Origin: Gemmatimonadaceae bacterium
Lineage (GTDB): Bacteria; Gemmatimonadota; Gemmatimonadetes; Gemmatimonadales; Gemmatimonadaceae
Direction: 5' to 3'
NCBI GenBank assembly: GCA_051859245.1
Contig: JBHYGA010000004.1
Span: forward strand, 800,001-864,000
Length of the DNA: 64,000 nt
The translations under genes and the position numbers were made by a program. Shown in pieces: positions 28,330-55,084 of the stretch (position 1 is the first letter of the stretch; each line of letters starts with the position of its first letter). The notes beneath the pieces were generated by a model. The model made no database searches, was not told the origin of the DNA, and worked only from the letters and a program-made list of their open reading frames with translations.

Positions 28330-29376
28330 ATGCATGCTGGTCGCTACTTCTCGCTGATTACGACCCTCAAGTGGACTCGGCGCGAGATCGTGCTGTTCAC
28401 GATCGCCGCCACGCTGCCGGCCGCCTTGCATCTCGGGCTGGGGTGGAAGTGGCTCGCGCTGCCCTGGGTGCCGGTGGCCCTCATTGGTACGGCGCTCGCG
28501 TTCATCACAGGCTTCAAGAACAACGCGTCGTATGATCGGCTGTGGGAAGCTCGCAAGATCTGGGGCGCGATTGTCAACGTCAGCCGGCAATGGGCGAGTG
28601 CGGTGCTCACCTTTCCCACAGCGGGTACCGAGCCATCTGCAGAGCAATGGCGAAGCAGTGAACCACCCGGCGTTCCCGCATCGGTCAGTGATATTCAACG
28701 TGTGCTCGTAATGCGACACATCGCCTGGCTCACCGCACTGCGTTACCAGCTGCGCACGCCGCGTGAGTGGGAAATGTTGTCAGCCGCACGTGATGACCAG
28801 GGTCCGCTCAGCTTTCCCATTGAGGAGTGGGACAACAAGCTTGAGCAACGACTGCTGGCGCTGTTGCCGCCAGACGATGCGCTGTATGTACTAAGCAAGC
28901 AGAACCGGGCGACTCATTTGCTGGCACTGCAAGCGCGGTCGCTGGAGCAGCTTGCAAATCGCGGCGCGCTGAGTGACTACAAGCGCGTTGACATGCAGCG
29001 ACTCATCAACCAGATGTACGACAATCAGGGTATGTGCGAACGGATCAAGAATTTTCCGTATCCAAGACAGTTCGCCACGCTCAATCGAACGTTCATGTGG
29101 CTCTTTATTGCCATGGTGCCGCTCGGACTGCTCAACGAGTTCGGTCAGGACGACAATCTCATCGCCGCGTTCATGGTACCGGCGTCAGTGATTGTGGGCT
29201 GGGTGTTCTACGTAATGGAGAAGATCGGCGCGGCGAGCGAAAATCCGTTCGAAGGCAGCGCGAACGATGTGCCGATTACGGCGCTCAGTCGCACAATTGA
29301 AATCGATCTTCGGGAGATGCTTGATGACACCAGTATTCCGCCTGCGCTGAAGGCGGCCGACGAAATCCTGATGTAG
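28330..29376 (+). CDS. bestrophin-family ion channel (YneE-like)
   Basis: FKNNASYDRLWEARKIWG, ERIKNFPYP, ENPF...NDVP. Confidence 0.9.
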   Translation: MHAGRYFSLITTLKWTRREIVLFTIAATLPAALHLGLGWKWLALPWVPVALIGTALAFITGFKNNASYDRLWEARKIWGAIVNVSRQWASAVLTFPTAGTEPSAEQWRSSEPPGVPASVSDIQRVLVMRHIAWLTALRYQLRTPREWEMLSAARDDQGPLSFPIEEWDNKLEQRLLALLPPDDALYVLSKQNRATHLLALQARSLEQLANRGALSDYKRVDMQRLINQMYDNQGMCERIKNFPYPRQFATLNRTFMWLFIAMVPLGLLNEFGQDDNLIAAFMVPASVIVGWVFYVMEKIGAASENPFEGSANDVPITALSRTIEIDLREMLDDTSIPPALKAADEILM

Positions 29377-32761: not shown

Positions 32762-34444
32762 TTACGAGAGTCCGCTCACTCGCCCGTCGGAGTCCATGGT
32801 CATGCGGGCGGCGGCCGGCGTCTTGGAGAGCCCGGGCATGGTCATGATATCCCCGCAGCGTGCCACCACAAAGCCAGCACCGGCGCTTCCGGTCACGTCG
32901 GCCACGCTGATTCGAAACCCGCTCGGGCGGCCGAGTCTGGACGCGTCGTCGGTGAGCGAATACTGCGTTTTGGCCATGCACACCGGCGTGTCGGCCATGC
33001 CGTTCGCTTCCAGCCACGCCATGCTGCGCTCCGCGGTGGGCGAAAAGTCCACGCCATCTCCGCCGTATACGCGCTGCACAATCGTCTCGATTTTCTCGCG
33101 GATCGGGCGTGATGTGTCGTACAGTGGACGGAACGACGCCTCACCACCGTCGAGCAGCTTCACCACTTCGCGCGCGAGCAGAATGCCGCCCTTGCCGCCG
33201 TTGGCGAACACGTCGGTGAGTGCCACCGCCACGCCCTGCGCTGCGCAGAATGCCATGACGCGATCAAGTTCGGCTTGCGTGTCTGTTGCGCGGCGATTCA
33301 CAGCGACCACAACAGGCACACCAAACTGCTGTACGTTGGCCACGTGATGCGCCAGATGTGGCAATCCGAGTTCGAGTGCGGACAGGTTTTCTGTATCGAG
33401 CTCGGTTTTCGCCGCGCCCCCCTGCATCTTCAGCGAACGAACCGTGGCCACGAGCACTGCGGCCTGCGGCGAGAGATCGCCCGCTCGGCAGACAATATCG
33501 AAAAACTTTTCGGCGCCAAGATCCGAGCCGAATCCAGCTTCGGTGACGACAATGTCACCAAGGGCGAGTGCCGTGCGCGTGGCGACCAGACTGTTGCAAC
33601 CCGTGGCGATGTTGCCGAACGGGCCGGCGTGCACAATGGCCGGTCCACCTTCGAGCGTTTGGACCAGGTTGGGGCGCATGGCGTGTTTGAGCAGAATGCT
33701 CATGGCCTGCTCCGCACCCAGATCACCCGCACGCACTGGTTCGCGTGCGGCACCAACGCGCGTTCCCACGATGATGCGCGCGAGACGCTCCTGCAAATCC
33801 TTGTAGCCACTGGCGAGTGAAACAATAGCCATGATTTCACTGGCCGGCACAATGACCCAACGCTCTTCACGCGGCACGCCGTGAGACGCGCCACCAAGAC
33901 CGATCACCGCGTGTCGCAGCGCACGATCATTCATGTCGATGGTGCGCGGCCACAGAATGCGACGCGTATCGATACCGAGTGCGTTGCCTTGCGCGAGGTG
34001 ATTGTCGATCAGCGCACTCAACAGATTGTGCGCCGCTGCAATCGCGTGAAAGTCACCGGTGAAGTGCAGGTTGATGTCTTCCATTGGCAGCACCTGACTG
34101 TATCCGCCGCCCGCAGCGCCGCCCTTCACGCCGAACACAGGCCCAAGACTTGGCTCGCGTAATGCGAGGACGGCGTTACCCGCCAGCAGTTGCAGTGCCT
34201 GCGTGAGACCAACACTAACCGTGCTTTTCCCTTCGCCCGCAGGCGTCGGGCTGATGGCCGTGACGAGCACCAGTCGGCCGCGCGGTTTCTGCTGCGCGAT
34301 CTCGAGCGGAAGTTTGGCCATGTAGCGACCGTACGGATCCAGCTCGTCTGGGATCAACCCGAGATCGGCGGCCACGTCAACGATCGGCCGCAAACGCGCC
34401 TGTTGCGCAATCTCAATATCGGACGGCATGCCGGACGTCGTCAT
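32762..34444 (-). CDS. fhs: formate--tetrahydrofolate ligase
   Basis: TPAGEGKST, GVKGGAAGGGY, HFTGDFH, VTEAGFGSDLGAEKF, CMAKTQYS, IMTMPGL. Confidence 0.97.
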   Translation of the reverse strand: MTTSGMPSDIEIAQQARLRPIVDVAADLGLIPDELDPYGRYMAKLPLEIAQQKPRGRLVLVTAISPTPAGEGKSTVSVGLTQALQLLAGNAVLALREPSLGPVFGVKGGAAGGGYSQVLPMEDINLHFTGDFHAIAAAHNLLSALIDNHLAQGNALGIDTRRILWPRTIDMNDRALRHAVIGLGGASHGVPREERWVIVPASEIMAIVSLASGYKDLQERLARIIVGTRVGAAREPVRAGDLGAEQAMSILLKHAMRPNLVQTLEGGPAIVHAGPFGNIATGCNSLVATRTALALGDIVVTEAGFGSDLGAEKFFDIVCRAGDLSPQAAVLVATVRSLKMQGGAAKTELDTENLSALELGLPHLAHHVANVQQFGVPVVVAVNRRATDTQAELDRVMAFCAAQGVAVALTDVFANGGKGGILLAREVVKLLDGGEASFRPLYDTSRPIREKIETIVQRVYGGDGVDFSPTAERSMAWLEANGMADTPVCMAKTQYSLTDDASRLGRPSGFRISVADVTGSAGAGFVVARCGDIMTMPGLSKTPAAARMTMDSDGRVSGLS

Positions 34445-35210: not shown

Positions 35211-37730
35211 TTACGCGCGGTTCGCGGGGTTGGGTGACCACACCGTCTCTCTGCCCGCGGGCGTACGCTGCTCCATCTGCGCAGTCATGCGCTTCACGCG
35301 ATCGGCCAGTTTCTCGGTAGTCAATTTTTCTCTGGTTCGGTCAACCAGCAACGGAAACGCCAGAGGCGTAGGACGATCGACCTCAACAAGTCGAACCTGG
35401 CCAGCGCTCAGACGTGTGAGCACACGTCCGATTCGGCTCGCTTCAAGTTGGCGTTCAAGCACTTCACGCTGCGCCTGATAGAGCAACAGATTTTCGGGAT
35501 CGTAGCGGGTGAAGACATCAAATAGCAGTCCGCTCGACGCCTGTACCTGCTTCATGGTTTTCTGCTGTCCGGGGAAGCCACTGAAAATGAGTCCGGCAAC
35601 ACGTGCAATCTCACGAAACTGTCGGCGCGCGAGATCGGCGGCGTTGAGACTCTGCGTAATGTCGTGCAGCAAATGCTCAGGCGAGAGCAATGAGGCGTCG
35701 AGCGCTTCCTCAAGCGGCGCGCGCTCGGGTGACAGCAAGTCAAATCCGTAGTCGTTGCACGCAAAGCTGAACGTGATAGGACTGAGCTGCGCAATGCGAT
35801 AGGCGAAAAGCGCCGACAGCCCCTCATGTACCAGACGACCTTCAAACGGATAGACAAATAAGTGGTGACCGTCACGCGTTTCGCAGCGTTCAATCAACAG
35901 TTCATCTGGTCGTGGAATAGCCGATCGTTGCGCCTGCAGCTCGAGCAACGGCTGCACCGCTTTCAGTTCGGCGGTATTGAAGTTCCCCTGCCGCGCGCTC
36001 ACAAGTGTGTTCCGAACTGCGGCCGCCAACTCCGTTGATAGCGGCATACGCGCGCCGGCCCAGCGCGGAATGGCGCCAGCACTCGATTTGGCTTTGCGTA
36101 CCCACGCAATCAGATCGCGTACGCGCACGAACTCCAGCGCGCGGCCGGAGAAGTGAAAGACGTCCCCCGGTTTAAGCCGAGCCACAAAGCTCTCTTCCAC
36201 CGTGCCGATGCGTCCACCGGTAAGAAAGCGCACGGCAATGGACGCGTCACTGACAATCGTACCAATGTTGAGCACGTGCCGACGCGCCACCTGTGCATCG
36301 CGAACAAAGAATTGTTCGTCGCGCTCAACGAGTCGCGCGTATTCCGGATACGCTTGCAGCGTATTCCCGCCACGCGTGGCAAAGTCGATTGCCCACGCCA
36401 GCTCAGCTTCGGTAAGCTGCGCGTAGGCGCGTGTTGTGCGGAGTTCGGCGAGCGCTCCCTTAGCAGCAAAGCCGCCTCCAAGCGCGAGCGTCACGAGATG
36501 TTGCACCAGCAAATCGAGCGGCCGGTCAAGCGGATCTCGCGATTCAATGGACATGGCGCGCATGGCATCGCGTGCGGCCGAGACTTCGACGAGTTCAAGC
36601 GCGTTGGTCGGCACACACACAATGCGCGACACACGGCCCGGAGAATGTCCGGATCGACCGGCGCGCTGCAACAGTCGCGCCACGCCCTTGGGGCTGCCAA
36701 TCTGCAGGACGACATCAACCGGCGAAAAATCCACGCCGAGGTCGAGTGACGAGGTGGAGACCACAATGCGATAGCGGCCGCTTCGCAAACCATCTTCCAC
36801 ACTGCGACGCTGCGCAACATCCAGCGATCCATGGTGCAGCGCGGTGAACTCAAACCAATCCGGCCGCGCGGTACAAATGGACTGAAACCAGATTTCACAT
36901 TGTGATCGCGTGTTCGTGAATACAATTGCGCTTTCCGCGCGTTCCAGACGCTCGAGTACTTGTGGTAGCAGTTTGACATTCAGATGGCCCGCCCACGGAA
37001 AACGATCCATGGAGTCTGGTACCAGCGATTCAACTTCGATTTCCTTGGGGACAAGTCCGCGCACGAGGCGTCCCGCATTGGGCTGTCCCGATGCATTCAC
37101 GCCAACGAGCGTGTCACAGGCGACTTGCAGATTGCCGAGCGTGGCGGACAATCCCCACGTGCGAAGTGCGGGCACAATTGCACGCAGTCGCGCCAGCGCC
37201 AGTTCCGTTTGCGCACCACGCTTTGACGCCAGCAGCTCATGCCATTCGTCCACAATGACGCACCGAAGATTGCGGAAGAGCGTGGCGTGATCATCGCGGC
37301 AAAGCAGCAGCGTCAGCGACTCCGGTGTGGTCACCAAAGCCGTGGGCAGCCGGTCGCGCTGTTTGCGCCGCACCGACGCTTTGGTGTCGCCGGTACGAGA
37401 CTCAATCGTCCACGGCAGTCCGAGTGCGTCGACTGGTTCACGCAGCGCGCGTTCCGTATCGGCGGCCAGTGCTCGGAGCGGGGTAATCCACAGCACGCGC
37501 AACTCAGCGCTCGCGTGTGGTGATTCGCCTAGTGCTTCAAGCACTGGCCCCATCCAGGCCGCGTAGGTTTTGCCGGTACCGGTGGCGGCGTGAATCAGTC
37601 CTGATTCGCCATTCTCGTACGCTTGCCAAACTTCGCGCTGGAATTCGAATGGCTCCCAACCGTTCGATGCGAACCAGCTGCTGATCAGCGATTCCGGCGT
37701 GCCCGAAGTAGCGACGCGCTTGTTTTTCAC
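35211..37730 (-). CDS. lhr: ligase-associated DEXH helicase (Lhr-core)
   Basis: ATGTGKT, PLRALA, DEWHE, SAT, HHGSL, QRAGRSGH. Confidence 0.93.
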   Translation of the reverse strand: MKNKRVATSGTPESLISSWFASNGWEPFEFQREVWQAYENGESGLIHAATGTGKTYAAWMGPVLEALGESPHASAELRVLWITPLRALAADTERALREPVDALGLPWTIESRTGDTKASVRRKQRDRLPTALVTTPESLTLLLCRDDHATLFRNLRCVIVDEWHELLASKRGAQTELALARLRAIVPALRTWGLSATLGNLQVACDTLVGVNASGQPNAGRLVRGLVPKEIEVESLVPDSMDRFPWAGHLNVKLLPQVLERLERAESAIVFTNTRSQCEIWFQSICTARPDWFEFTALHHGSLDVAQRRSVEDGLRSGRYRIVVSTSSLDLGVDFSPVDVVLQIGSPKGVARLLQRAGRSGHSPGRVSRIVCVPTNALELVEVSAARDAMRAMSIESRDPLDRPLDLLVQHLVTLALGGGFAAKGALAELRTTRAYAQLTEAELAWAIDFATRGGNTLQAYPEYARLVERDEQFFVRDAQVARRHVLNIGTIVSDASIAVRFLTGGRIGTVEESFVARLKPGDVFHFSGRALEFVRVRDLIAWVRKAKSSAGAIPRWAGARMPLSTELAAAVRNTLVSARQGNFNTAELKAVQPLLELQAQRSAIPRPDELLIERCETRDGHHLFVYPFEGRLVHEGLSALFAYRIAQLSPITFSFACNDYGFDLLSPERAPLEEALDASLLSPEHLLHDITQSLNAADLARRQFREIARVAGLIFSGFPGQQKTMKQVQASSGLLFDVFTRYDPENLLLYQAQREVLERQLEASRIGRVLTRLSAGQVRLVEVDRPTPLAFPLLVDRTREKLTTEKLADRVKRMTAQMEQRTPAGRETVWSPNPANRA

Positions 37731-39367
37731 GCGTGATTACGCTGCGCACGCAGCATGGCGCGCACGGTCTCGAGGGTGTCAGCGTCGGCGGCTGTTTTGT
37801 CGCGCCGCCAACGCGCAATGCGCGGAAAGCGAACGGCCAGACCACTTTTGTGGCGCGTGCTTTCCTGAATGCCTTCAAACGCGAGCTCAAACACGAGGCG
37901 CGGTTCTACGGTACGCACCGGTCCAAACTTCTCTTTGGTGTGTGCGCGCACAAAGCGATCCACTTCGCGAATCTCGGCATCGGTGAGCCCGGAGTACGCT
38001 TTGGCAAACGGAACGAGCGTGTTGTCCAGCCATACGGCAAAGGTGTAGTCGGTGTACAAACCGGATCGACGGCCATGTCCGGTCTGCGCGTACACGAGCA
38101 CGGCGTCTACACTCAACGGCGAAACTTTCCACTTCCACCACTCGCCCGCGCGACGCCCAACACCATAGGGCGAGTCCGCGCGCTTGAGCATCAGTCCCTC
38201 TGCTTCCTGTGCGCGTGCGTCGCTACGTAGACGACTCACATCATCCCAACTCTCAACCGCGATGACTGGTGAAAGACTGACCGCAAGCGGCGTCGCACCG
38301 ATTGCCTCATGTCGGTCGGTTAACAGAGAATGCACCCGCTCCAATGCCTCTCGTCTCACATGCATCGGTTCGCTGCGAATATCTCGTCCGTCAACTTCGA
38401 GACAGTCGTAGGCGACCAGATGCACGGGCACATCACTCAAGAGCTTTTTGCCCACCGTTTTGCGATTGAGCCGGCGCTGCAGCGCCGTGAACGGCATGGG
38501 GCGCTTGTCTTGCCACGCCAGCAGCTCGCCATCCAGCACCGTGCCGTCCGGTAGCAGTGAGAGCGACGCTTCTACTTCCGGGAATCGCCCGTTGAGCAAC
38601 TCCTCACCGCGACTCCACAAAAACACCTGGCCCCGACGCACAATAAGCTGCGCACGAATGCCGTCCCACTTGTACTCAATCTGCCACGCGTTCGGCGCAC
38701 CGAGCGTTTCCGGTTCCGCTTCAAGCGGATACGCAAGAAAGAACGGATAGGGGCGACTCCAGTCCGCGTCGCTGGTGGCGGTACTTACGAGCGTGCGGAA
38801 CCACTCGCCTGAGGGTTCCCACTGCCCCATGAGACGATGGGCAATCACGTCCGGTTCAACACCGCTGGTGCGGGCGAGTGCGCGAACCACAAGGCCATCG
38901 GATACGCCAACTCTGAACGCGCCGGTGAGCAGTTTGTTGTACACGAACCGGGCTGTTCCACGCAAGGTGCTCCACGCCTCGAACAGCTGCGTGCGCTGCG
39001 CGTCTGGTGTCAGTGTGCGCAGCGGCAACAATCGCTGCTCTACCCATGCGGCGAGACTGAGATCCACGGCACCCGCACCCTGCTCGACGCTCTCCGGAAT
39101 GAGTAGCGCAATCGTTTCCGCCAGGTCACCAACTTGCGCGTAGGATTCTTCGAACAGCCAATCCGGAATGTTCGCCAGCTCGGCCGCCCACAGTCGCAAA
39201 TCCGGGGCGCGCACGAGTCGTTTGGGTCTGCGTCCGGTAAGAAACGCAACGGCCCACGCCGCGTCGGCCGCGGGTGCATTCGCAAAATACTCCGCCAGCG
39301 CATCTGTCTTCGCCTGCGTACCGGTTGACGAATCGATAGCGTCATAGAGCGCCGCAAAACGGATCAT
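37727..39367 (-). CDS. ATP-dependent DNA ligase
   Basis: EYKWDGIR (KxDG), LDGEL, EGLMLK, WWKWK, VRFPRI. Confidence 0.95.
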   Translation of the reverse strand: MIRFAALYDAIDSSTGTQAKTDALAEYFANAPAADAAWAVAFLTGRRPKRLVRAPDLRLWAAELANIPDWLFEESYAQVGDLAETIALLIPESVEQGAGAVDLSLAAWVEQRLLPLRTLTPDAQRTQLFEAWSTLRGTARFVYNKLLTGAFRVGVSDGLVVRALARTSGVEPDVIAHRLMGQWEPSGEWFRTLVSTATSDADWSRPYPFFLAYPLEAEPETLGAPNAWQIEYKWDGIRAQLIVRRGQVFLWSRGEELLNGRFPEVEASLSLLPDGTVLDGELLAWQDKRPMPFTALQRRLNRKTVGKKLLSDVPVHLVAYDCLEVDGRDIRSEPMHVRREALERVHSLLTDRHEAIGATPLAVSLSPVIAVESWDDVSRLRSDARAQEAEGLMLKRADSPYGVGRRAGEWWKWKVSPLSVDAVLVYAQTGHGRRSGLYTDYTFAVWLDNTLVPFAKAYSGLTDAEIREVDRFVRAHTKEKFGPVRTVEPRLVFELAFEGIQESTRHKSGLAVRFPRIARWRRDKTAADADTLETVRAMLRAQRNHA

Positions 39368-40416
39368 GACGTAACTCCGTTCGCATCTGCGCTCGCGTTG
39401 GTGCTGTCGGTTTCGTCAACCGCGGCGTCATCACGTTCGCCCTCAAATCGTGTGGCGATCGCGCTCGCTTCGTAGCCATGTTCTGTGAGCCAACGCACCA
39501 CCGGGCCGGTAAATCCGTGTGTGACCCACACGCGTTCAGCGCCGGTGGCGGAGATGGCGCTCAATAGCTGGGGCCAGTCGACGTGGTCTGACAACGTGAA
39601 TCCTCGATCAACGCCGCGCCGTCGACGGGCTCCGCGCACCTGCATCCAGCCGCTTGCAAACGCGGCGGTGTGTTTGCCAAAGCGGCGTACCCAGGTGCTG
39701 CCATCAACGCTTGGTGGAGCCACAATAATGGCGCGTGCCCATGCCGGATCGCGCTGATCAACCGTAGCATAGGTGGTAGGCGGCATCGTGATGCCGGCCT
39801 CGCGATACAGCGCGGTCATGCTCTCGACGGCGCCATGCGTGAGAATTGGGCCAATGTCTGGATCGAGTCCGGACAGTAGACGCTGTGCTTTGCCGAGTGC
39901 GTAGCCGTAAAGCAGCGAGGCGCGGCCAGCGTTTGCGTTCTCGCGCCACCACTGGTTGATCTCGCCAAACACCTCGGTTTGCGCCGGCCAGCGATAGATG
40001 GGCAGGCCAAACGTGCTCTCGGTGATGAAGGTGTGGCACCGCACCGGTTCCCACGGCGCGCACGTGGTGTCAGCGTCCGTTTTGTAGTCACCGGATACCA
40101 CCCACACCTCACCCTTGTATTCCACGCGAATCTGTGCCGATCCGAGAATGTGGCCGGCGGGGTGCAGCGAGATCCGTACGCCGTTGATGGTCGTCGTTTC
40201 GCCATACGGTACCGCGCGCACACGATCCGCCTGCGCCCCCAGTCGATGACGCGAAACGCCGAGTCCCGCTTCGGAGACGAGATAGTGCCGGTGTCCCCAA
40301 CGCAGGTGATCGGCATGCGCGTGCGTGACTACGGCGCGGTCAACGGGCGCCCATGGGTCGATGAAGATGTCCGCCGCCTCGCACCAGAGGCCGCGATCCG
40401 TCAGGCGTAACAGCAT
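39364..40416 (-). CDS. ligase-associated MBL-fold exonuclease
   Basis: THAHADH, AGHILGS, SGDYK, ESTFGLP, LSDHVDW; start ATG 40416. Confidence 0.92.
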   Translation of the reverse strand: MLLRLTDRGLWCEAADIFIDPWAPVDRAVVTHAHADHLRWGHRHYLVSEAGLGVSRHRLGAQADRVRAVPYGETTTINGVRISLHPAGHILGSAQIRVEYKGEVWVVSGDYKTDADTTCAPWEPVRCHTFITESTFGLPIYRWPAQTEVFGEINQWWRENANAGRASLLYGYALGKAQRLLSGLDPDIGPILTHGAVESMTALYREAGITMPPTTYATVDQRDPAWARAIIVAPPSVDGSTWVRRFGKHTAAFASGWMQVRGARRRRGVDRGFTLSDHVDWPQLLSAISATGAERVWVTHGFTGPVVRWLTEHGYEASAIATRFEGERDDAAVDETDSTNASADANGVTS

Positions 40417-40468
40417 GGTAGTGAGTGTCTTGCGGCGCGTGTTCGTTCCGTCCCGTAATATGAGTGGC

Positions 40469-43027
40469 ATGACGCACAAACTCTTGCTACTGACCGTAGG
40501 GCTACTCTTGTTCGGCGCCGCGGCATGCAACCAGGACGACGTCCCTGCGCCGGACGCTGGCGTGTCGCGGGCGCTCGCTGAACATCGCGGGTCGAGCATT
40601 TCGGACCTGCGCTACGAGCTCGCGCTACGCGTTCCTGCTAGCCGGACGGAGGCCGTGACCGGCACCGTACACGTGCGATTCAGTTTGTCCGATGTGTCGC
40701 AGCCGCTCGTGCTCGATTTTCGCGCACCGTCCGATCATGTACTCGCTGTTCAGTTGAACGGCGATTCGGTCCAGTACGAGGTGCCACCCGATCACATTGT
40801 GATCCCTTCGCGCGCACTCACGGTAGGAGCGCAGACGGTTACGGTGTCGTTCCGCAGTACCGATGCCGCGCTGAACAGACAGGATGATCTGCTGTACGCC
40901 TTGTTTGTTCCGGATCGAGCGTCCACCGCCTTCCCGGTCTTTGAGCAGCCCAATCTGAAGGCGCGCTTCACGCTTGCCATGACGATCCCATCAGCGTGGC
41001 GAGCGATTTCGAATGGCGCCAAGCAACGAGAAGATGGTGTGGACGACCTGACGACCACGCTGCACTTCGCCGAAACCAAACCCATCAGCACGTATCTGTT
41101 CACGTTTGCGGCTGGTGTGTTTTCAACGGAGACCGCGGTGCGCAACGGTCGCACGCTCACCATGTACCATCGAGAAACGGATTCACTCAAGTTGCAGCGC
41201 AATCGCGAGGCAATTTTTGATCTGCATGCAGCGTCGCTCTCATGGCTGGAAGAGTACACCCAAATTCCATATCCGTTTGACGAGTTCGCATTTCTTGCGG
41301 TCCCAGCCTTTCAGTTTGGCGGCATGGAGCACCCCGGCGCGATCTGGTACCGCGCGGAGTCACTGTTTCTCGATCCAACCGCGTCGCGTACTCAGGAGCT
41401 TGGTCGTGCGAGTCTGATCGCGCACGAAACAGCGCACATGTGGTTTGGCGATCTGGTCACCATGCGATGGTTCGACGATGTGTGGATGAAAGAAGTCTTT
41501 GCAAATTTCATGGCCGCAAAGATTGCGGGTCCGTCGTTCCCCGAGCTGAATCTTCGCCTGCGATTTTTTCAGGCACATCATCCCACGGCGTACGCAGTGG
41601 ATCGGACGGCCGGCGCCAACGCGATTCGCCAGCCTCTGGAGAACCTGCGCGATGCGGGATCACTCTACGGTGCCATCATTTATCAGAAAGCGCCCGTGGT
41701 GATGCAGCAGCTCGAAGAGCTGATTGGCGCAGACGTCATGCGCGACGGGTTGCGGGAATACCTGAACCGCTTTCGCTACGGCAATGCCACATGGCCTGAT
41801 CTGATCGCCATCCTCGACGAGCGAAGCACGGAAGATCTGGCCACGTGGAGCCAGGTGTGGGTGAATGAGCCCGGCCGTCCTCGCATCACGGTCGAGCGGC
41901 GTGACTCCGGCCTCGTGCTCACGCAGTCTGACGATATGCCCAATCGCGCGTTGCGTTGGACGCAGCCGATCGTGATTGCCGTCGGAACCGGCGACCGTGA
42001 GGTGGAGCATCGGGTGTCGCTGCGTGAAGCATCCGCATTTCTTCCGCTCAAGGCGCAAGACACCACTACGTTCGTGCTGGCGGGTGCAGACGGCGTTGGC
42101 TACGCGCGATTTGTTCTCGACGCGGCGAGTCGTGATCACCTGCTGGAGAATGTCAACGCGCTCGACAACCCCATCCATCGTGCCGCCGCGTGGCAATCGT
42201 TGTGGGAAGAGGTACTCGACGATTCCATGGCGGCGCTCGACTTTGTTCGAGCGACAACGCGCGCGGTCGAACAGGAACAGGATGAACTCGTAGCGCAGCA
42301 AGTGCTCGGACTGTTGCGTGGTGCGTATTGGCGATTCCTTTCCGACTCATTGCGAACCGCCGTTGCGCCAAGTGTCGAACGTGCGCTTTGGAATGCACTG
42401 GATCGCGCACCCACACCGGGGCGCAAGGGAGCGTATTTCAGTACCATTGTCAGCGTTTCACTCTCTGCCGATGGCGTCAACAGACTGGAACGTATCTGGC
42501 GACGCGACGAAACGCCGCGCGGACTTCCGTTGGTTGAGCAACAGTACATTTCGCTGGCAGAAGCACTCGCGCTGCGCGGCGTACCCAACGCCGACTCCAT
42601 TCTTGACGCGCAGTCAACACGCATTACCAACCCGGATCGGCGCGCGCGTTTTGCCTTCGTTCGTCCCGCGTTCAGCCGCAACTTCCGTGTTCGTGACTCG
42701 TTGTTTCAGACGTTCACAAACGTAGAGAACCGACGCCGCGAATCGTGGGTGCTCGATGCCATGAGTGCCATGCATCATCCACTGCGGGCGAAAGAGGCAA
42801 TCGCACAGGTTGCGCCCAGTCTTGAACTCACCGAAGAAATCCAACGTACGGGCGATATTTTCTTCCCACTCCGATGGCTGAACGCCACGCTCGATGGACA
42901 TCGATCCAAAGAGGCCGCGGATCTGGTGCGCGCGTATCTGGCGAAGCATCCAGACCTTCCGCCGCGACTGCGCGGCAAGGTGTTACAAGCCGCGGACGAC
43001 CTCTATCGTGCGTCTACGAGGGAGTAA
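40469..43027 (+). CDS. pepN: M1 family aminopeptidase (lipoprotein)
   Basis: GGMEH, HETAHMWFGDLV...KE, YQK; lipobox AAAC. Confidence 0.9.
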   Translation: MTHKLLLLTVGLLLFGAAACNQDDVPAPDAGVSRALAEHRGSSISDLRYELALRVPASRTEAVTGTVHVRFSLSDVSQPLVLDFRAPSDHVLAVQLNGDSVQYEVPPDHIVIPSRALTVGAQTVTVSFRSTDAALNRQDDLLYALFVPDRASTAFPVFEQPNLKARFTLAMTIPSAWRAISNGAKQREDGVDDLTTTLHFAETKPISTYLFTFAAGVFSTETAVRNGRTLTMYHRETDSLKLQRNREAIFDLHAASLSWLEEYTQIPYPFDEFAFLAVPAFQFGGMEHPGAIWYRAESLFLDPTASRTQELGRASLIAHETAHMWFGDLVTMRWFDDVWMKEVFANFMAAKIAGPSFPELNLRLRFFQAHHPTAYAVDRTAGANAIRQPLENLRDAGSLYGAIIYQKAPVVMQQLEELIGADVMRDGLREYLNRFRYGNATWPDLIAILDERSTEDLATWSQVWVNEPGRPRITVERRDSGLVLTQSDDMPNRALRWTQPIVIAVGTGDREVEHRVSLREASAFLPLKAQDTTTFVLAGADGVGYARFVLDAASRDHLLENVNALDNPIHRAAAWQSLWEEVLDDSMAALDFVRATTRAVEQEQDELVAQQVLGLLRGAYWRFLSDSLRTAVAPSVERALWNALDRAPTPGRKGAYFSTIVSVSLSADGVNRLERIWRRDETPRGLPLVEQQYISLAEALALRGVPNADSILDAQSTRITNPDRRARFAFVRPAFSRNFRVRDSLFQTFTNVENRRRESWVLDAMSAMHHPLRAKEAIAQVAPSLELTEEIQRTGDIFFPLRWLNATLDGHRSKEAADLVRAYLAKHPDLPPRLRGKVLQAADDLYRASTRE

Positions 43028-46920: not shown

Positions 46921-48060
46921 TTAGCCCGCGTTCGCGTCTGCGAAACTTTCCGCAAACGTTGGGGCCATGAGTCCCTCGAGGGACCGACCGTGTGGATCCT
47001 GATGTGAACGGATGTTGTTGACCATCTCGAGTGCGGTCTGCGTGAGCGGCGGCAGCGTCATAGACGATGTTCCAAGCGGCGTCACACGCTGTCCCCATTT
47101 GACCAGCAACGAGCAGTACGTCAGCCCTCCACCAAACGCCGGCAGCAGCAAGGTAGCGCCCGGTTTGACCCGTCCCGCTTCAAGGGCCTCCACCAGCGCA
47201 ACGGGAACAGTGGCCGCGCTCATGTTGCCATATTTCTCCACCGTCACAACCACGCGCTCCATCGGAATACCGGCGTATTTGGCGACGGCTTCGATGATGC
47301 GCAGGTTCGCCTGATGCGGCACCACGAGATCGACCTGATCTGCCGTGAGCCCCTGCTGTTCCAATACGCGCTTTGATGCATCAGACATGGCGTGAACGGC
47401 GCGCTTGAAAATTGCCTGTCCGTCAAAATCCCACAGCGTATCGCCGAAGGTGACGTCATGCAGCGCGTAGGTGCAGCCAAACCCTCGCACGCGCAGCGTG
47501 TGCCGGCCCTCTGCGTCACAGCCGAGAATGCTGCCGAGTACACCTTCTTCGTTGTCAGACGCTTGCAGTACAACCGCAGCGGCGCCGTCGCCAAAGAGCA
47601 CGGCGACATTACGATTCGACCAATCCATGTAGCGGCTGATCAGCTCCACGCCGATCACGATTGCATTGCGCACGACGCCCGTACGAATCATGGCCGTGGC
47701 GGTGGTAAGGCCATAACAGAAACTGGTGCACGCCGTATTCAGATCGATGCTCGCCGCCCGTGTCGCGCCCAGTGCCATTTGTACACCCGACGCACTGTTC
47801 GGTACGAGTTCGTCGTTGCTGACGCCGCCGTAAATGATCAAATCAACATCGGCGGCATCGAGCCCGGCGCAGGCCAGCGCTCGCGACGCGGCCACCGTGG
47901 ACAGCTCGATCGCACCCACGTGCGACACGCGACGCTCTTTCATACCGGTGCGCGACGAGATCCACTCGTCGGACGTGTCGAGAAAGGTGCTGAGGTCGTT
48001 GTTCGTGAGAATGGCCGGCGGCATGCAAGCGCCCCAGCCCGTGATCGCGGCGTAGGTCAT
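46921..48060 (-). CDS. fabH: 3-oxoacyl-ACP synthase III family protein
   Basis: DTSDEWI, ACTSF (catalytic Cys), LFGDGA, PHQAN, GNMSAA. Confidence 0.9.
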   Translation of the reverse strand: MTYAAITGWGACMPPAILTNNDLSTFLDTSDEWISSRTGMKERRVSHVGAIELSTVAASRALACAGLDAADVDLIIYGGVSNDELVPNSASGVQMALGATRAASIDLNTACTSFCYGLTTATAMIRTGVVRNAIVIGVELISRYMDWSNRNVAVLFGDGAAAVVLQASDNEEGVLGSILGCDAEGRHTLRVRGFGCTYALHDVTFGDTLWDFDGQAIFKRAVHAMSDASKRVLEQQGLTADQVDLVVPHQANLRIIEAVAKYAGIPMERVVVTVEKYGNMSAATVPVALVEALEAGRVKPGATLLLPAFGGGLTYCSLLVKWGQRVTPLGTSSMTLPPLTQTALEMVNNIRSHQDPHGRSLEGLMAPTFAESFADANAG

Positions 48061-48144: not shown

Positions 48145-49212
48145 CTAACGACAGGCCGCGCGCGTGGGCAGCACCACCCAGTAGTCGAACTCCAGCACAA
48201 CGTTTGGCAGATACGCGCCGGTCTCATCCCGAAGTGGAAAGCCGGCGGCGGAGTGGTCCTTGAGCGCAACAGTGCGCAGGCGAAGGGCGCCCACATCGGT
48301 GCGTTCCGCCAACGGCTGTTTGTCCACCACTTCCGACCACGCATAGATCGTGTCACCGGCAAACGCCGGGTTCACGTGTCGACCGGCGTTGATACCGAGC
48401 AGCGCAAAGGCGTTGCCGAGTCCGTTAAATGACAGCGCACGCGCCAGACTGATGATGTGCCCACCGTACACAATGCGGCGGCCAAAACGGCCTTCACGTT
48501 CGACATGCTGGTTGAAGTGCACGCGCGCACTGTTCTGATAGAGTCGCGCCGCCATCATGTGTTCCGCTTCTTCAATCGTCATGCCGTCGACATGATCAAT
48601 GCGCTCACCCACTGCGTAATCGTCCCACGCATTGGGGTCGCCGGACAGTCGTGTGTCGTACGCCTGCTGCGCAATTCGGAACGGCACCGACAGTGAGTCA
48701 GCGGCCACAGACTCCGGTAACGACGGCACCACGGTTTCCGGTGGAGCAGACGACGCATCTCGCTTTCGCACCATGGCCCAACGGGTGTACTCCACGACCA
48801 TCTCGCCACGCTGATTTGCACCACGTGAACGCACGTACACCACACCGGTGGTGCCGTCTTTGTTGGCCTTGACGCCCAACACCGTACTAACCGTTGAGAC
48901 GGTGTCGCCCGGAAACACCGGCACACCGAAGCGACCGTCGGCATAGCCCAGGTTGGCGATCGCGTTGAGCGAGATGTCGGGCACGGACTTGCCGAACACC
49001 ATATGAAAGACGAGCACCGAATCAACGGGCGACTCGGAAACGCCCACGCACGTTGCGAACGGCGATGAGCTGGTCACCGCAAAGCGCGAGCCAAAGAGCG
49101 ACGTGTAGAGCGCCACGTCACCCGTGGTGATCGTACGCGGTGTGGCGTGCACCAACTCCTGGCCCACGAAAAAATCTTCGAAATAGTTTCCGTGCTGTGT
49201 TTTGCCGGTCAT
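48145..49212 (-). CDS. mch: mesaconyl-C1-CoA hydratase (double-hotdog MaoC)
   Basis: GNYFEDF, VPDISLNAIANLGYA, YQNSARVHFN, YGGHIIS; cluster context. Confidence 0.88.
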   Translation of the reverse strand: MTGKTQHGNYFEDFFVGQELVHATPRTITTGDVALYTSLFGSRFAVTSSSPFATCVGVSESPVDSVLVFHMVFGKSVPDISLNAIANLGYADGRFGVPVFPGDTVSTVSTVLGVKANKDGTTGVVYVRSRGANQRGEMVVEYTRWAMVRKRDASSAPPETVVPSLPESVAADSLSVPFRIAQQAYDTRLSGDPNAWDDYAVGERIDHVDGMTIEEAEHMMAARLYQNSARVHFNQHVEREGRFGRRIVYGGHIISLARALSFNGLGNAFALLGINAGRHVNPAFAGDTIYAWSEVVDKQPLAERTDVGALRLRTVALKDHSAAGFPLRDETGAYLPNVVLEFDYWVVLPTRAACR

Positions 49213-49216
49213 GCGA

Positions 49217-50260
49217 TCAGAATCCATACGCAGCGGCGAGTTCGGGATCGTTGCTTGCGACAAGACGCGCGAGATCAACGATCACCTTGGCCTGCTTCCA
49301 GGTGGCATCGTCCTGCATCTTGCCATCAATCATGGCCACCCCGCTGCCATCGGGCATGGCGTCGAGAATCCGACGGGCGAACAACACTTCCCTGGCGTCC
49401 GGACTGAACACTCGGCGCGCAATCGCAATCTGATTAGGCGCCAGTGACCACGCGCCAGTGCAACCCATCACGAACGCATTGCGGAACTGCGCTTCACAGC
49501 CCGCCTCGTCACGAATATCGCCGAAGGGGCCATAGAACGCACGAATACCATGTGACACACACGCATCCACCATGCGAGCCACCGTGTAGTGCCACAGGTC
49601 CTGCTGTACAAAGGTGCGCGGTGCGTTCGATTCGTCGGGATCAGACAGCACGCCGTAGAACGGATGCCCACCGCCCACACGCGTTGTTTTCATGCCACGC
49701 GACGCCGCGAGATCGGCCGGGCCCAGACTCATGCCGTGCATGCGCGGACTGGCGCCGGCAATCTGCTCCACATTCTTCACGCCTTCGGCCGTTTCGAGCA
49801 GTGCGTGAATAAGAATCGGCTTGCGAATATTGTAGCGCGCTTCGAGCAGCGCGAGGTACTGATCCACAAAGTGAATGTCCCAGGGGCCCTCCACTTTCGG
49901 AATCATGAACACATCAAGCTTGTTGCCGGCGTCGCGTACAATCTGATCAAGATCATCAAGAAACCATGGTGAGTTCAGACAGTTCACGCGCACCCACAGC
50001 GCCGTGGTGCCGAAATCATTGGCGTTTGCAACCTCAATGAAGCCGGCGCGCGCCGCCGCTTTGTCTTCTACCGGAATGGCATCTTCCAGATTGCCGCACA
50101 GCACATCGACCTGACGCACCATTTCCGGCACGCGTGCCCGGATCTTTTCTATGTGTGGCGGAAAAAAATGAATCATGCGCTCCGGTCGCACGGGCAATGC
50201 ACGCAGCGGTTCGGGGGCGCCAATGGCTAACGGCTTGTAAAAATTGAACGGAAGCTTCAC
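49217..50260 (-). CDS. mcl: malyl-CoA/beta-methylmalyl-CoA/citramalyl-CoA lyase (Chloroflexus type)
   Basis: [63 protein letters not shown], closely matching the C. aurantiacus enzyme as I recall it. Confidence 0.9.
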
Positions 50261-50301
50261 GTGCAGATGCTCCTGAGGAATGTCAGATCGAACGATCGGA
50301 G

Positions 50302-51537
50302 TTACGCGACTGGTCCGGCAACAATGCCATCATCGTGCAGTTGCCCAAGCTCGGCTTCGCTGACGCCAGCGAGCTCGAGCAGAATTTCATCCGTGTGCTG
50401 ACCAAGCAGCGGGGCGGGCGCCGACGGAAGTCGGTGCATCGCCCCAAAATGCAGCGGCGTTCCGGCCGCCAGCACGTTACCAACTCCGGGCTGCGAGAGC
50501 TGAGAGAACATTGGATTCGCGACTGAACAATCCGCGTCTTGCGCGAGCGTTTCTCGCACGGTGCGGTATGGCGCCCACGTGACACGATGCGCAGCAAATG
50601 ATTCAGCGACTGCCGAAAGCGTGCGCGCCGCAAACCACGGTTCCAGCTCGCGCGCAATTGCCTCGCGGGCGCGAAAGCGGTTGCCTTCTTCCTTGAGATC
50701 AAGACCGAGCTGTGCACCCAACGCCGTCATCGCACTGCCGCTGCCTGTGGCGGAGCAGAGTGTCATCCACTGCGCATCCGTCAGACCAATCACCATGACG
50801 CGCGCCCCGTCCTGCGTGACAAAATCGCGGCCAAACGCACCGTACAAGTAGTTGCCGTAACGCGGACGATCGATGTTCGTGAGCTCAACTTCAGCAATGA
50901 AGCCGAGCGCGCCGAGCATCGCGAGGCCGACGTCTTTAAGCGCGAGCGAAATGAACTGTCCCTGTTTGGTACGCGTGCGGTGTCGCTCAGCAGCCAGAAT
51001 GGCAATGGCGATCTGGTGTCCGGCAATCGCATCCCACGCCGGGAAGACATGGTTCACCGGATCCGGACTGTCTGCCGGCCCCGTGATGTTCGGAAAACCA
51101 AGCTGTGGATTCACCGTGTAGTCCACCTCCGATCCACCATCTCGGCGACCGGTGAGGTTGACCATGATGAGATCATCGCGATGCGCGCGCAGTGCATCGT
51201 AAGCGAGCCAGCCACGCGCGGGAAAGTTGGTGGAGAAGATTCCCGCGTCCGCACCTGGCGCACAGATCACACGCGTGAGCAGCTCCTGCGCACGTGGCGA
51301 ACGCAGGTCTACCGCGATGGATCGCTTGCCCTTGTTGAGTCCGGTCCAGAACAGACTCGCCGAGCCATCCGCTGTGAGCGGCCAACGGCGGGCGTCGAGG
51401 CCACCACCGATGGGATCGAAGCGAATGACATCGGCGCCAAGCTGTGCCAACGTCATACCACCGAGCGGCGCGGCAACGAATGCCGATCCCTCAACCACAC
51501 GCATGCCGCTCAACACAGGCTTCGCCGAGTGTGTCAC
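50302..51537 (-). CDS. mct: mesaconyl-CoA C1-C4 CoA transferase (family III)
   Basis: [56 protein letters not shown]. Confidence 0.88.
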
Positions 51538-51540
51538 GCG

Positions 51541-52767
51541 CTAGATCACCCGTTGGGCGCGAAGTGAGGCGATTTCTGACTCGGATTTTCCGAGCACATC
51601 ACGCAGCACTTCTTCGGTATGCTGACCGAGTGTTGGGCCGAGACTGCGAATCGTGCCTGGCGTTTCGGAGAGAAGCGGCACGGGAGACGGAATCACCATG
51701 GACTCGCCCGTAAGTGGATCATCGATGGCCACAAGATTGCGGCGTGCGTGAAACTGCCGGTCGCCAAAAATATCGGCAATGTTGTTGAGCGGACCGGCTG
51801 GCGTGTCTGTCGCGTAACAACGCGTGAGCACCTCTTCCCGGGTCAGTGACCCGCACCAATCGCGTACGATTTCGTTGACGGCGTGGCAGTGGGAGAGTCG
51901 CACCTTCTGCTCACCGTACGTGCTTGTTGAGGCCAGCTCTGGCCGCCCCATGGCTGCCGCCAGTCGGGCAAACAGTTTGTCGGTGGCGCATGAGATGGCC
52001 ACCCACTTGCCGTCGCGTGTGGCGAAGTGTCCGTGCGGGCACGCAAAGTCATTGTGCGACGATCCCATGCGTTCGCGCACCATACCGTACATGCTGTACG
52101 CCGGTGCCAGCTCGTCGGTGCAGCGAAACACCGATTCATACAGCGCCGCGTCCACGTACTGGCCTTCGCCTGTCTGATCACGATGACGCAGCGCCATGAG
52201 CACGCCGAGACATCCGTACAAACCGGTCATGTAGTCGCCGAGTGTGGTGGACCCCGGCGTCACCGGCGTGCCTTTTGGCATGCCGGCCAGGTAGGCAATG
52301 CCACCAACGGCATGGGCAACACGCGCAAATCCGGGCCGATCCTTGTACGGGCCGGTTTGTCCGTACCCCGTGACGCGAAGCATGACGAGTCGCGGATTGA
52401 TAGCGTGCAGCACATCCCAGCCCAGTCCCCATTTTTCGAGCGTGCCCGTGCGAAAGTTCTCACACAGCACATCCGTTTTGGCGATGATTTCCTTGAACAG
52501 CGCTACACCTTCAGGCAAGCGCAGATCGAGTGTGACGGATCGCTTGTTGCGCGCTTCGCTCACCCAGGTGAGTGTGTCGCCGCGCTGCGATGGTGTGCCA
52601 AAGCGGCGCAGACCATCACCACCGAGCGGGTGCTCGATCTTGAGCACGTCCGCACCGAACTCGCCGAGCAGCGTGGCGCAGAACGGTGCCGCAATAATGG
52701 TGGCGATATCAACCACGCGAATGCCGTGCAACGGCAGCGCGCTCGTATCAGGCGTCTTCTGATGCAT
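51541..52767 (-). CDS. smtB: family III CoA transferase, probable succinyl-CoA:L-malate CoA transferase subunit B
   Basis: CaiB/BaiF motifs ([24 protein letters not shown]); tandem paralog in the mcl cluster; subunit naming by synteny. Confidence 0.75.
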
Positions 52768-52778
52768 GCGATGGCGGC

Positions 52779-54008
52779 TCAGATGATGTGCTGCGAACGC
52801 AGACGTTCGATCTCTGCGGCGGCAAGGCCGAGCAGATCGCGCATGACTTCATCGGTGGCGTTGCCGAGTGTTGGACCGAGGTTGGTGATGCGCCCTGGCG
52901 TTTTGGAGAGTCGTGGCACAACGCCCGGAATCACGATGTCCTCAATGCCGGGCTCCGACATATGCACCAGATCCTCGCGCGCCTGAAACTGCTCGTCGGC
53001 AAAGATGTCGGCGATTGAGTTCACTTTTCCTACCGGGACTTCTTCGGCGAGACATTTGGCGAGCACTTCATCGCGCGTGAGTGATCCCACCCAGTCAATC
53101 ACAATCGCGTTCACGCGATCGCGATCGGCGAGTCGCTTGCGCTGATCACCGTACAGATTGCTCGACGAGAGATGCGGTTGTCCCATGGCGACCGACAATC
53201 GTTCAAACATTTTGTCGGTCGTGCACGCGATCGCGATCCACTTGTCGTCTGAGGTACGAAAATGTCCGTGCGGCACCGCCACAAAACTGCCGGACCCTTC
53301 GCGTTCGCGGATTTTGCCAGATGTCCCGTAGGCCGTGGCAATTTCTTCGAGCACACGAAACACCGACTCGTAAATGCCGACGTCGACCATTTGTCCGCGT
53401 CCCGTCTGCTCCTGATGACGCAGCGCGATCAGCGTGCCGATGGCACCAAACAAACTGGCGATGTAGTCACCAAGCGGCACGGTGCCAGGCAGCACCGGCG
53501 TTTCACCCGGGAAGCCCGACAAATAGTTCAGGCCACCGAACGCTTGCGCGATGTGTGCGAAGCCAGAGCGCCGGCGATACGGTCCCGTTTGTCCGTAGCC
53601 CGACACGCGCAGCATGACGAGACGTGGATTCGCGGCGTGAATTTCCGACCAACCCAGTCCCCATTCTTCCATGGTGCCGGGTCGAAAGTTTTCGACCAGC
53701 ACGTGCGACTTGCGCACCAGTGCCAGAAACAGCTCAACGCCTTCGGGCTTTCGCAAGTCGAGTGTGACGGATTTGCGATTGCGTCCTTCGCTCAGCCACT
53801 TGAGTGTGGCATCGGCGCGTGGCGACGGTGTGCCGAATCGTCGCATGGGATCGCCTGCAATCGGATGCTCGATCTTGAGCACTTCCGCACCAAACTCTCC
53901 AAGAATCGACGCGGCGTAGGGACCGGCGAGAAAGTTGCCAACATCAAGCACCCGGATTCCCGTCAACGGCAGTTGTTCTGCCGCGGTCTTCTCTTCAGCA
54001 GTACTCAC
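52779..54008 (-). CDS. smtA: family III CoA transferase, probable succinyl-CoA:L-malate CoA transferase subunit A
   Basis: CaiB/BaiF motifs; GTG 54008 with AAGGGG RBS; subunit naming by synteny. Confidence 0.75.
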
Positions 54009-54190
54009 CAACACCCCTTGGCATAGCGCAAAGTCACGTGCTACTCGGACTTCGCAATCATGGCGCACAACGGCGAAATGCGCCACGTTTGTGGCACAGA
54101 TCTGTCAGTGACGCGCGGGGATGGCTGATCATCGCCAAGCCACTCGCGACACCAACGCGACAGAAAGGTTCTCCGTTCCCCGCCACATCG

Positions 54191-55084
54191 ATGACCGACG
54201 ACGTAACTGAACTCACCACCTGGATCGGACGACGCGAAGTGGTGCGCGATGATCTGGCGGTGACGCAGGCGCAGGCCGCCGCCGCGATGTTCGATCTGAA
54301 CGACGAGCCGCACGCGGGTACCGCGCTGCCGCCCCTTTGGCACTGGTTCTACTTCTTGCCGCGAGCGCGCCAGGAGCGACTTGATCGCGACGGACATCCG
54401 GCACGCGGCGGATTTCTGCCACCGATTACGCTACCGCGTCGCATGTTCGCGGGAAGCCGTGTAACGTTTCATGCACCGCTCGTGCTTGGCACGCCCGCCG
54501 AGCGCGAGGCGACCATCAAAAACGTGTCGCTCAAAAGCGGACGCACCGGCGCGCTCGCGTTCGTCACGGTTGGCTATCGGTTTACGCAGCAGGCGCAGCT
54601 GTGCGTGGAAGAAGAGCAGGATATCGTGTATCGCGAGGTCGGCGATGCGGTTGACGCGCCTGATGTGCGCGAATGGCCCGCGCCTCCCGCCGGCGCGCGA
54701 ACCCGTGATGTCCACGCCGATTCCCGTCTGCTCTTTCGTTTTTCCGCACTCACCTTTAACGCGCATCGCATTCACTACGATCGCGCGTACGCGACGCAGG
54801 ACGAGGGCTACCCAGGACTTGTCGTACACGGGCCGCTCACGGCGATGCTGCTCGCGGAGCTTGCCCAGTCTGTTGAAAGCGCGCACGCAGAACGCGAGCA
54901 CCGCGCACCACGCGACATGCGTACGTTCAGCTTTCGTGGCCTGTCACCGCTCTTTGACACGGCGCCGTTCCGACTGCAGGCGCTCGCCGGGGACCATGCC
55001 ACAACACTTGAGGCGATTCGCTCCGACAGTGCGACGGCCATCAAGGCCGACGCGACCTTTTCGGTCAAGCCGCCGGAAGAATGA
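54191..55084 (+). CDS. meh: mesaconyl-C4-CoA hydratase (HTD2-like hotdog)
   Basis: LPPLWHWFYF, DGHP.RGGFLPP, RRMFAG, FSALTFNAHRIHYD, LVVHGPL; divergent from smtA. Confidence 0.85.
   Translation: MTDDVTELTTWIGRREVVRDDLAVTQAQAAAAMFDLNDEPHAGTALPPLWHWFYFLPRARQERLDRDGHPARGGFLPPITLPRRMFAGSRVTFHAPLVLGTPAEREATIKNVSLKSGRTGALAFVTVGYRFTQQAQLCVEEEQDIVYREVGDAVDAPDVREWPAPPAGARTRDVHADSRLLFRFSALTFNAHRIHYDRAYATQDEGYPGLVVHGPLTAMLLAELAQSVESAHAEREHRAPRDMRTFSFRGLSPLFDTAPFRLQALAGDHATTLEAIRSDSATAIKADATFSVKPPEE

Follow-up and report, generated by a model that had tools for sequence, protein, structure and literature searches.

A Chloroflexus-type glyoxylate-assimilation gene cluster and a putatively complete 3-hydroxypropionate bi-cycle in a phototrophic Gemmatimonadaceae bacterium

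The six-gene cluster and its enzymes

We analysed a 64,000-nucleotide stretch of a Gemmatimonadaceae genome (assembly GCA_051859245.1, contig JBHYGA010000004.1), hereafter called the window, which is C4:800001-864000 in our numbering of the host contigs. At 48145..55084 the window carries six genes that a preliminary description had read as the glyoxylate-assimilation cluster of the 3-hydroxypropionate bi-cycle, smtA-smtB-mct-mcl-mch with a divergent meh. All six reading frames are intact, and their coordinates and family matches confirm the proposed families at this place. Five lie on the minus strand. smtA (52779..54014) encodes subunit A of the family III succinyl-coenzyme A (CoA):(S)-malate CoA-transferase, and its paralogue smtB (51541..52767) encodes subunit B; both match PF02515, and SmtB is 58.6% identical to SmtA. 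They are followed by mct (50302..51537), for the mesaconyl-CoA C1-C4 intramolecular CoA-transferase, also of family III; mcl (49217..50260), for a malyl-/methylmalyl-/citramalyl-CoA lyase of the HpcH/CitE family; and mch (48145..49212), for the double-MaoC mesaconyl-C1-CoA hydratase (beta-methylmalyl-CoA dehydratase). On the plus strand, meh (54191..55084) encodes the HTD2-like mesaconyl-C4-CoA hydratase.

Gaps between the minus-strand genes are small (mch-mcl 4 bp, mcl-mct 41, mct-smtB 3, smtB-smtA 11). The likely starts of mch, smtA and meh lie inside their longest open reading frames (ORFs), which extend to 49278 for mch and to 54086 for smtA. The 176-bp divergent intergenic region (54015..54190) presumably holds the promoters of both units, judging by its position. 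A promoter scan found no sigma-70-like site there, and promoter and terminator counts were equal to or under shuffled levels. The cluster has a guanine-cytosine (GC) content of 0.609, against 0.62 for the contig, and the 3974 called genes of the host yielded no second copy of any of its members.

The lyase had been described as being of the Chloroflexus rather than the Rhodobacter type, and this assignment holds. Mcl scores 662-664 bits against the sequences of structures 4L7Z and 6KIN, which we take to be the Chloroflexus and Roseiflexus enzymes, versus 208 bits against 4L9Y, presumably the Rhodobacter enzyme. It is 81-82% identical to the proteins of Chloroflexota loci, and Arg92, Glu157, Asp184 and Asp318, which we assume to be its key sites, are all present. 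Mct matches 8APQ with 650 bits, while the next family reaches 88 bits. Asp165 is catalytic in this enzyme, Arg47 and Tyr136 are mesaconate ligands and Leu43 is the gate of the intramolecular transferases, as described in PMC9813914. All four residues are present in Mct and are invariant in 81/81 sequences; Phe101 is also retained, and Ile74 is replaced by Leu.

Mch scores 533 bits against 4E3E and 438 bits against 8HGN, and contains PF19315. Meh is 57-59% identical to the gene at the same position in five Chloroflexota loci. Its close homologues score 348-535 bits, and many of the best 120 are named 3-methylfumaryl-CoA hydratase, while its sole solved relative, the itaconyl-CoA hydratase (Ich) 8KHG, scores 201 bits. 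Meh is thus nearer to the bi-cycle Meh than to Ich, with the caveat that the two sets of scores come from different searches. SmtA is 76-77% identical to the first copy in 6/6 Chloroflexota loci, and SmtB is 78-81% identical to its counterparts in Chloroflexota. The SmtA and SmtB sequences form separate clades in a tree of 28 loci. A structure search with SmtB gave no close match, the best scoring 221 bits. The two subunits were named by position, as in C. aurantiacus (PMC3150298), and by identity to the Chloroflexota loci. Together, the structure matches, the Mct residues and the 57-82% identity to Chloroflexota loci uphold the initial enzyme calls and identify the six genes as the counterparts, by orthology, of Chloroflexus smtA, smtB, mct, mcl, mch and meh.

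A Chloroflexus-type layout had also been proposed. We scanned for loci with Mct, which gave 176 relatives, and examined the best 80, only six of them from Chloroflexota. In 53 of the 80, from Gemmatimonadota, Proteobacteria and Chloroflexota, the genes follow the order meh< smtA> smtB> mct> mcl> mch> without deviation, in agreement with that proposal. Most of the other 27 are broken by contig ends, and a few are without smtAB. Because the exact order recurs in so many loci, the layout is not due to chance. Six loci (L013, L054, L064, L071, L073 and L077; one from Gemmatimonadaceae and several from Rhodocyclales) have a variant cluster in which meh adjoins mct, with no smtAB between them. One further locus (L068) places smtA-smtB-mct-mcl-mch on an 11-kb contig in a Chthoniobacterales (Verrucomicrobiota) record, which could be mis-binned.

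The remainder of the bi-cycle and the metabolic context of the host

In C. aurantiacus, SmtAB activates malate and Mcl splits malyl-CoA into glyoxylate and acetyl-CoA. Mcl then condenses glyoxylate with propionyl-CoA; the product is converted to (S)-citramalyl-CoA by Mch, Mct and Meh, and Mcl splits this into pyruvate and acetyl-CoA. Acc, Mcr and Pcs regenerate propionyl-CoA, and Pcc, Mce, Mcm, Sdh and fumarase close the first loop.

The host belongs to Gemmatimonadaceae, in agreement with its suspected placement in Gemmatimonadota, and the same set of matches recurs in genomes of the same genus and family. Its genome measures 4.70 Mb in 11 contigs and is 99.87% complete and 2.2% contaminated. 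The mcr, pcs and acetyl-/propionyl-CoA carboxylase genes that had been suggested as a test of completeness were all found in it. On another contig than the six-gene cluster, pcs and mcr form a pair (C1:1547566-1556747) that overlaps by ATGA. The ORF of the trifunctional Pcs has 1828 codons and encodes ligase, hydratase and reductase domains; its nearest match in the PDB is 6EQO, with 2420 bits. That of the bifunctional Mcr is a 1240-codon SDR ORF (1187 bits over the full length to 8HI4). We also found AccA, B, C and D; a PccB-biotin carboxylase-carrier set, in which Pcc was recognised from its family and its gene neighbourhood rather than by a PccB-specific model; two large Mcm subunits and a small one, with MeaB; Mce, which passes its model cut-off; SdhABC; and a class I fumarase. 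Motifs of PPDK, phosphoenolpyruvate carboxykinase and PntAB are present as well. Each of the 13 enzymes listed for the C. aurantiacus bi-cycle (PMC3150298) has a gene in the host and, on gene content, the 3-hydroxypropionate bi-cycle is genetically complete.

The search for photosynthesis genes, also suggested at the outset, was likewise positive. The presence of pufLMC, bchLNB, bchXYZC and acsF indicates an anoxygenic phototroph with a type II reaction centre. A bchE-hemN pair lies outside the photosynthesis cluster (C1:1057709-1060803; L158:1709-4803), so that genes for both an oxygen-independent cyclase (bchE) and an oxygen-dependent one (acsF) are present. The photosynthesis genes occupy two blocks about 60 kb apart (C5:440-473 kb, L003-L004; and 530-540 kb, L137), and four unrelated genes separate the puh and puf parts.

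Genes for the handling of glycolate and bicarbonate accompany these sets. glcDEF is intact, each gene scoring under its NCBIfam cut-off. A run of sbtA, sbtB (PII), a beta-carbonic anhydrase gene and an NhaR-like LysR gene is found at C1:972900-975848 (L156:7900-10848), in a host without the Calvin cycle. A bestrophin-LCIB carbonic anhydrase pair lies on C7 (L157:3995-5773), and the window has a further bestrophin gene at 28330-29376 (+). Ten kb from sbtA is a RuBisCO-like protein gene (C1:982836-984068; L135:837-2069) that scores under all cut-offs; beyond it, no true RuBisCO was found in the host, and the Calvin cycle was rejected on that ground. The ethylmalonyl-CoA pathway was also rejected: Ccr had no match over cut-off in the host genome. 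Isocitrate lyase and malate synthase were each found in 0/15 genomes of the genus.

We found no inorganic electron donor system in the host. Neither [NiFe] hydrogenase nor SoxY was found in its genome, and SoxY was found in 0/15 genus genomes. Motif searches gave no match to SQR or form I CoxL and no sign of Fe or As donors in the host, and the molybdopterin matches resemble ACIII and NuoG by context. In a tblastn search of the whole host genome with 39 E. coli K-12 proteins, no match was obtained for ilvI, ilvH, ilvC, ilvD, leuA or leuD, for cysC, cysD, cysH, cysI, cysJ or metA, or for gcl, aceA or aceB. LeuC and CysN matched at only 26-30%, while the controls were recovered (7/7 his, 5/5 trp and 4/4 arg queries, and MetH). 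Barring gaps in the assembly, the host thus appears to depend on an external supply of branched-chain amino acids and of reduced sulfur.

The host shares with C. aurantiacus the order of the six genes, the Mct residues, all 13 enzymes and phototrophy with glcDEF. It belongs to another phylum, however, and carries pcs and mcr as a coupled pair, whereas these genes are far apart in C. aurantiacus. That organism also has icl, malate synthase and cox genes (PMC3150298), none of which was found in the Gemmatimonadaceae host, which is further set apart by its lack of a detected inorganic donor and its apparent auxotrophy. Other groups are known for one half each. The loci of Ca. Accumulibacter show the same six-gene layout, and we take this group and its relatives to have a partial bi-cycle consisting of the cluster only. 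Aerobic phototrophs such as Erythrobacter NAP1, presumably the source of 6EQO, are assumed to have only the pcs-mcr half. The host has both halves.

Distribution in Gemmatimonadaceae and ancestry of the cluster

We surveyed 401 Gemmatimonadaceae genomes, sampled evenly and all of 80% completeness or more, the host among them. Of these, 37 have mct, 43 have mcr and 69 have pufLM. Both mct and mcr are present in 35 genomes, and all 35 carry pcs, for which 76 chosen genomes were scanned. Partial sets occur as well, with mcr but not mct in 8/401 and mct but not mcr in 2/401, partly in fragmented metagenome-assembled genomes (MAGs). The combination of mct, mcr and pcs occurs in 32/69 genomes with reaction-centre genes versus 3/332 without, and the three carriers that lack reaction-centre genes are MAGs of 240-600 contigs. 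The carriers are spread over six genera (17, 10, 3, 2, 2 and 1 genomes), and the counts are therefore not independent. Two genera, g46 and g47, contain both carriers and non-carriers. In a sample of the whole phylum, mct was found in 7/94 Gemmatimonadaceae genomes and in 0/306 genomes of 11 other families.

Among the 35 carriers, a match to the [NiFe]-hydrogenase large subunit was found in 9, compared with 8 of the 29 phototrophs that have none of mct, mcr and pcs. SoxY was found in 0/35 carriers. Malate synthase is present in 6/35 carriers and 9/29 phototrophic non-carriers, so that mutual exclusion between the cycle and malate synthase is not clear and was rejected as support.

In a six-protein tree, built from the 52 of 81 rows that have all six genes, the window and all 22 Gemmatimonadota rows lie on one side of a branch with SH-like support of 98. 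A second six-protein tree of 20 hand-chosen rows places the window with all 8 Gemmatimonadota rows in the same manner (SH-aLRT 95). On these trees, the cluster may have entered Gemmatimonadaceae once. When SmtA and SmtB were used to root each other in 28 loci, the sister group was Chloroflexota plus Accumulibacter for SmtA (support 91) and other Proteobacteria for SmtB (99). Because the two rooted subtrees give different sister groups, we claim no donor. Recent arrival in the host genome was rejected, since the GC content matches that of the contig and mct is present in 12/15 genus genomes.

The two halves of the bi-cycle can be found side by side. pcs adjoins mcr in 29/30 loci, the remaining one being a 2.4-kb contig inside mcr. 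In one genome, G297, a single run on contig C14 reads pcs> mcr> meh< smtA> smtB> mct> mcl> mch> (L148:6502-20000 and L149:1-2537), and two loci from Burkholderiaceae, L015 and L022, share this eight-gene order. A different placement, with pcs after mch, is seen in 11 other proteobacterial loci. These arrangements suggest an ancestral eight-gene cassette.

The presence of the cluster and the full gene set in Gemmatimonadaceae is already published. Garritano et al. 2022 (PMC9802188) described both in two Gemmatimonadaceae MAGs, where the genes of the cluster are arranged as in the window, and described the bi-cycle in Burkholderiales MAGs as well; the supplement scores pigment-synthesis pathways in both Gemmatimonadaceae MAGs. 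There the trait was tied to inorganic donors, with hydrogen and sulfur pathways scored as present, whereas none was found in our host; the accessible text covers two MAGs, without a family-wide count, a reaction-centre link or a check for auxotrophy. A preprint (bioRxiv 10.64898/2026.09.02.748891) reports mcr and mcl in freshwater Gemmatimonadota and Pseudomonadota, notes that both groups are considered to be obligate photoheterotrophs, and states that validation is needed. It reports no enrichment for photoautotrophy in them, while in our survey 32/35 carriers have reaction-centre genes. Freshwater phototrophic Gemmatimonadota MAGs have been stated to be without carbon-fixation genes (PMC8547001). 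The main text of a survey of more than 400 genomes of the phylum (PMC10581226) contains neither 'hydroxypropionate' nor 'malonyl', and notes glcDEF and patchy sulfate reduction. In the openly accessible literature, we found no family-wide count or physiological test of the bi-cycle in Gemmatimonadaceae. What we add are the family-wide counts, the association with reaction-centre genes (32/69 versus 3/332) and the eight-gene cassette.

Probable use of the bi-cycle

The cluster is probably the glyoxylate-assimilating half of a complete bi-cycle that is run mixotrophically, on bicarbonate plus organic carbon with ATP made in the light. With the help of light, bicarbonate would most likely be assimilated together with acetate, propionate and glycolate. 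We favour mixotrophic use because no inorganic donor was found and the host is apparently auxotrophic. The preliminary description had offered co-assimilation and a full CO2-fixing bi-cycle as its two options. The full gene set is present and co-assimilation is favoured, but growth on CO2 alone is disfavoured by the donor and biosynthesis genes that were not found.

Under the mixotrophic reading, light would supply ATP, organic substrates would supply NADPH and the carboxylases would add bicarbonate. Electrons would come from partial oxidation of the organic substrate, through the tricarboxylic acid cycle, GlcDEF and transhydrogenase to NADPH, and not from H2 or sulfur. Acetate could enter as succinyl-CoA without the glyoxylate shunt (acetyl-CoA + 2 HCO3- -> succinyl-CoA). 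Glycolate could enter through GlcDEF and the cluster (glyoxylate + HCO3- + 3 NADPH -> pyruvate), with a gain of one carbon. The cycle would then be the sole route found for net assimilation of acetate and glycolate, and it would double as an electron sink when the substrate is reduced, as fatty acids are. Our own stoichiometry gives only a small net gain of carbon on acetate, about 0.5 CO2 per succinate; propionate or fatty acids would yield more.

Several points weigh against this reading. Gene presence alone does not establish flux through both loops. Mct matches TIGR04253 over its full length but with 682.7 bits falls under the cut-off of 725 (the next model scores 108 bits); this shortfall concerns a scoring threshold rather than a catalytic feature, and we judge it outweighed by the structure match and the retained residues. 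The absences in the host rest on an 11-contig assembly in which gaps are possible, with SQR and the other donors sought by motifs only. In the family, 27/35 carriers belong to two genera, and the link with phototrophy is therefore confounded by kinship. The hydrogenase matches in 9/35 carriers imply that some relatives could have an inorganic donor. Finally, since malate synthase is present in 9/29 phototrophic non-carriers, the other 20 manage without shunt or cycle, and lack of the shunt is unspecific.

It is rather doubtful, although conceivable, that the two half-pathways are instead used separately with little net gain of CO2. The cluster would then dispose of glyoxylate and propionyl-CoA (or of C5 acids such as mesaconate and citramalate), pcs-mcr would assimilate acetate or 3-hydroxypropionate, and the link with phototrophy would reflect shared ancestry. 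The location of the cluster and pcs-mcr on different contigs in the host, the partial sets in 8/401 and 2/401 genomes and the small carbon gain on acetate alone would fit such use, and partial sets are read as co-assimilation modules in PMC9802188. However, 35/37 mct carriers also have mcr, all 35 of them with pcs, the eight-gene cassette occurs in G297, L015 and L022, and SmtAB, which links both loops, is retained.

True photo(litho)autotrophy is improbable. In that case the bi-cycle would provide the bulk of the cell carbon, as it does in Chloroflexus, and the host would use an unrecognised inorganic donor and only small organic supplements. The complete gene set and the bicarbonate transporter and anhydrases are consistent with it, and bchE-hemN would permit pigment synthesis without oxygen. 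The host also has one sulfite-oxidase-family gene, far under the SorA and SoxC cut-offs, hydrogenase matches occur in 9/35 carriers, and inorganic donors have been proposed for the two MAGs in PMC9802188. Nevertheless, neither [NiFe] hydrogenase nor SoxY was found in this 99.87% complete genome, nor were motifs of SQR or form I CoxL, its molybdopterin matches look by context like ACIII and NuoG, and SoxY was found in 0/35 carriers. With no inorganic donor, branched-chain amino-acid synthesis or sulfate reduction found, strict autotrophy of the host seems unlikely.

A mere resemblance to bi-cycle enzymes, with the genes in fact acting in the breakdown of itaconate or methylsuccinate, is very improbable. 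The sole solved relative of Meh is an itaconyl-CoA hydratase, and Mcl and Mch weakly match the RipC and RipB models. However, the RipC and RipB matches are far under cut-off (131 versus 375 and 112 versus 340 bits), each protein is 57-82% identical to the Chloroflexota gene at the same position, and Mct keeps the intramolecular-type residues.

The mixotrophic reading can be extended to the family, though only tentatively. Nearly half of the phototrophic Gemmatimonadaceae species (32/69 sampled), which have been described as obligate photoheterotrophs that fix no carbon, may be photomixotrophs that run the whole bi-cycle on ATP from light and electrons from organic matter, with their own bicarbonate uptake, and draw a sizeable part of their cell carbon from CO2, the trait having entered once as a pcs-mcr-meh-smtAB-mct-mcl-mch cassette that is intact in G297. 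Should about half of the phototrophs in the family operate the bi-cycle in the light, aerobic anoxygenic phototrophs would provide a CO2 sink that has gone uncounted, linked to glycolate from algae and to short fatty acids, and mesophiles outside Chloroflexota would join the hosts of the oxygen-tolerant bi-cycle. Taken alone, the cluster is unremarkable and already published; its interest lies in the strong family-wide link with phototrophy and in the physiological question, which the near-complete genome narrows. The carriers and non-carriers in g46 and g47 are natural controls.

Downstream of mch, after 84 bp, lies a gene for a FabH2-like beta-ketoacyl-ACP synthase III (46921..48060, minus strand; best PDB match 4WZU, 397 bits). 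It is co-oriented with the cluster and is found in the same place, at 85-96% identity, in 8/80 loci, all of them near relatives of the host, in which it may be a seventh operon gene. Its product may serve in the re-use of medium-chain acyl-CoA, a role associated with FabH2. Elsewhere in the window, 32762-34444 (-) encodes a formate-tetrahydrofolate ligase that scores over cut-off, and 35211-40599 (-) holds genes for a ligase-associated DNA damage response exonuclease and ligase.

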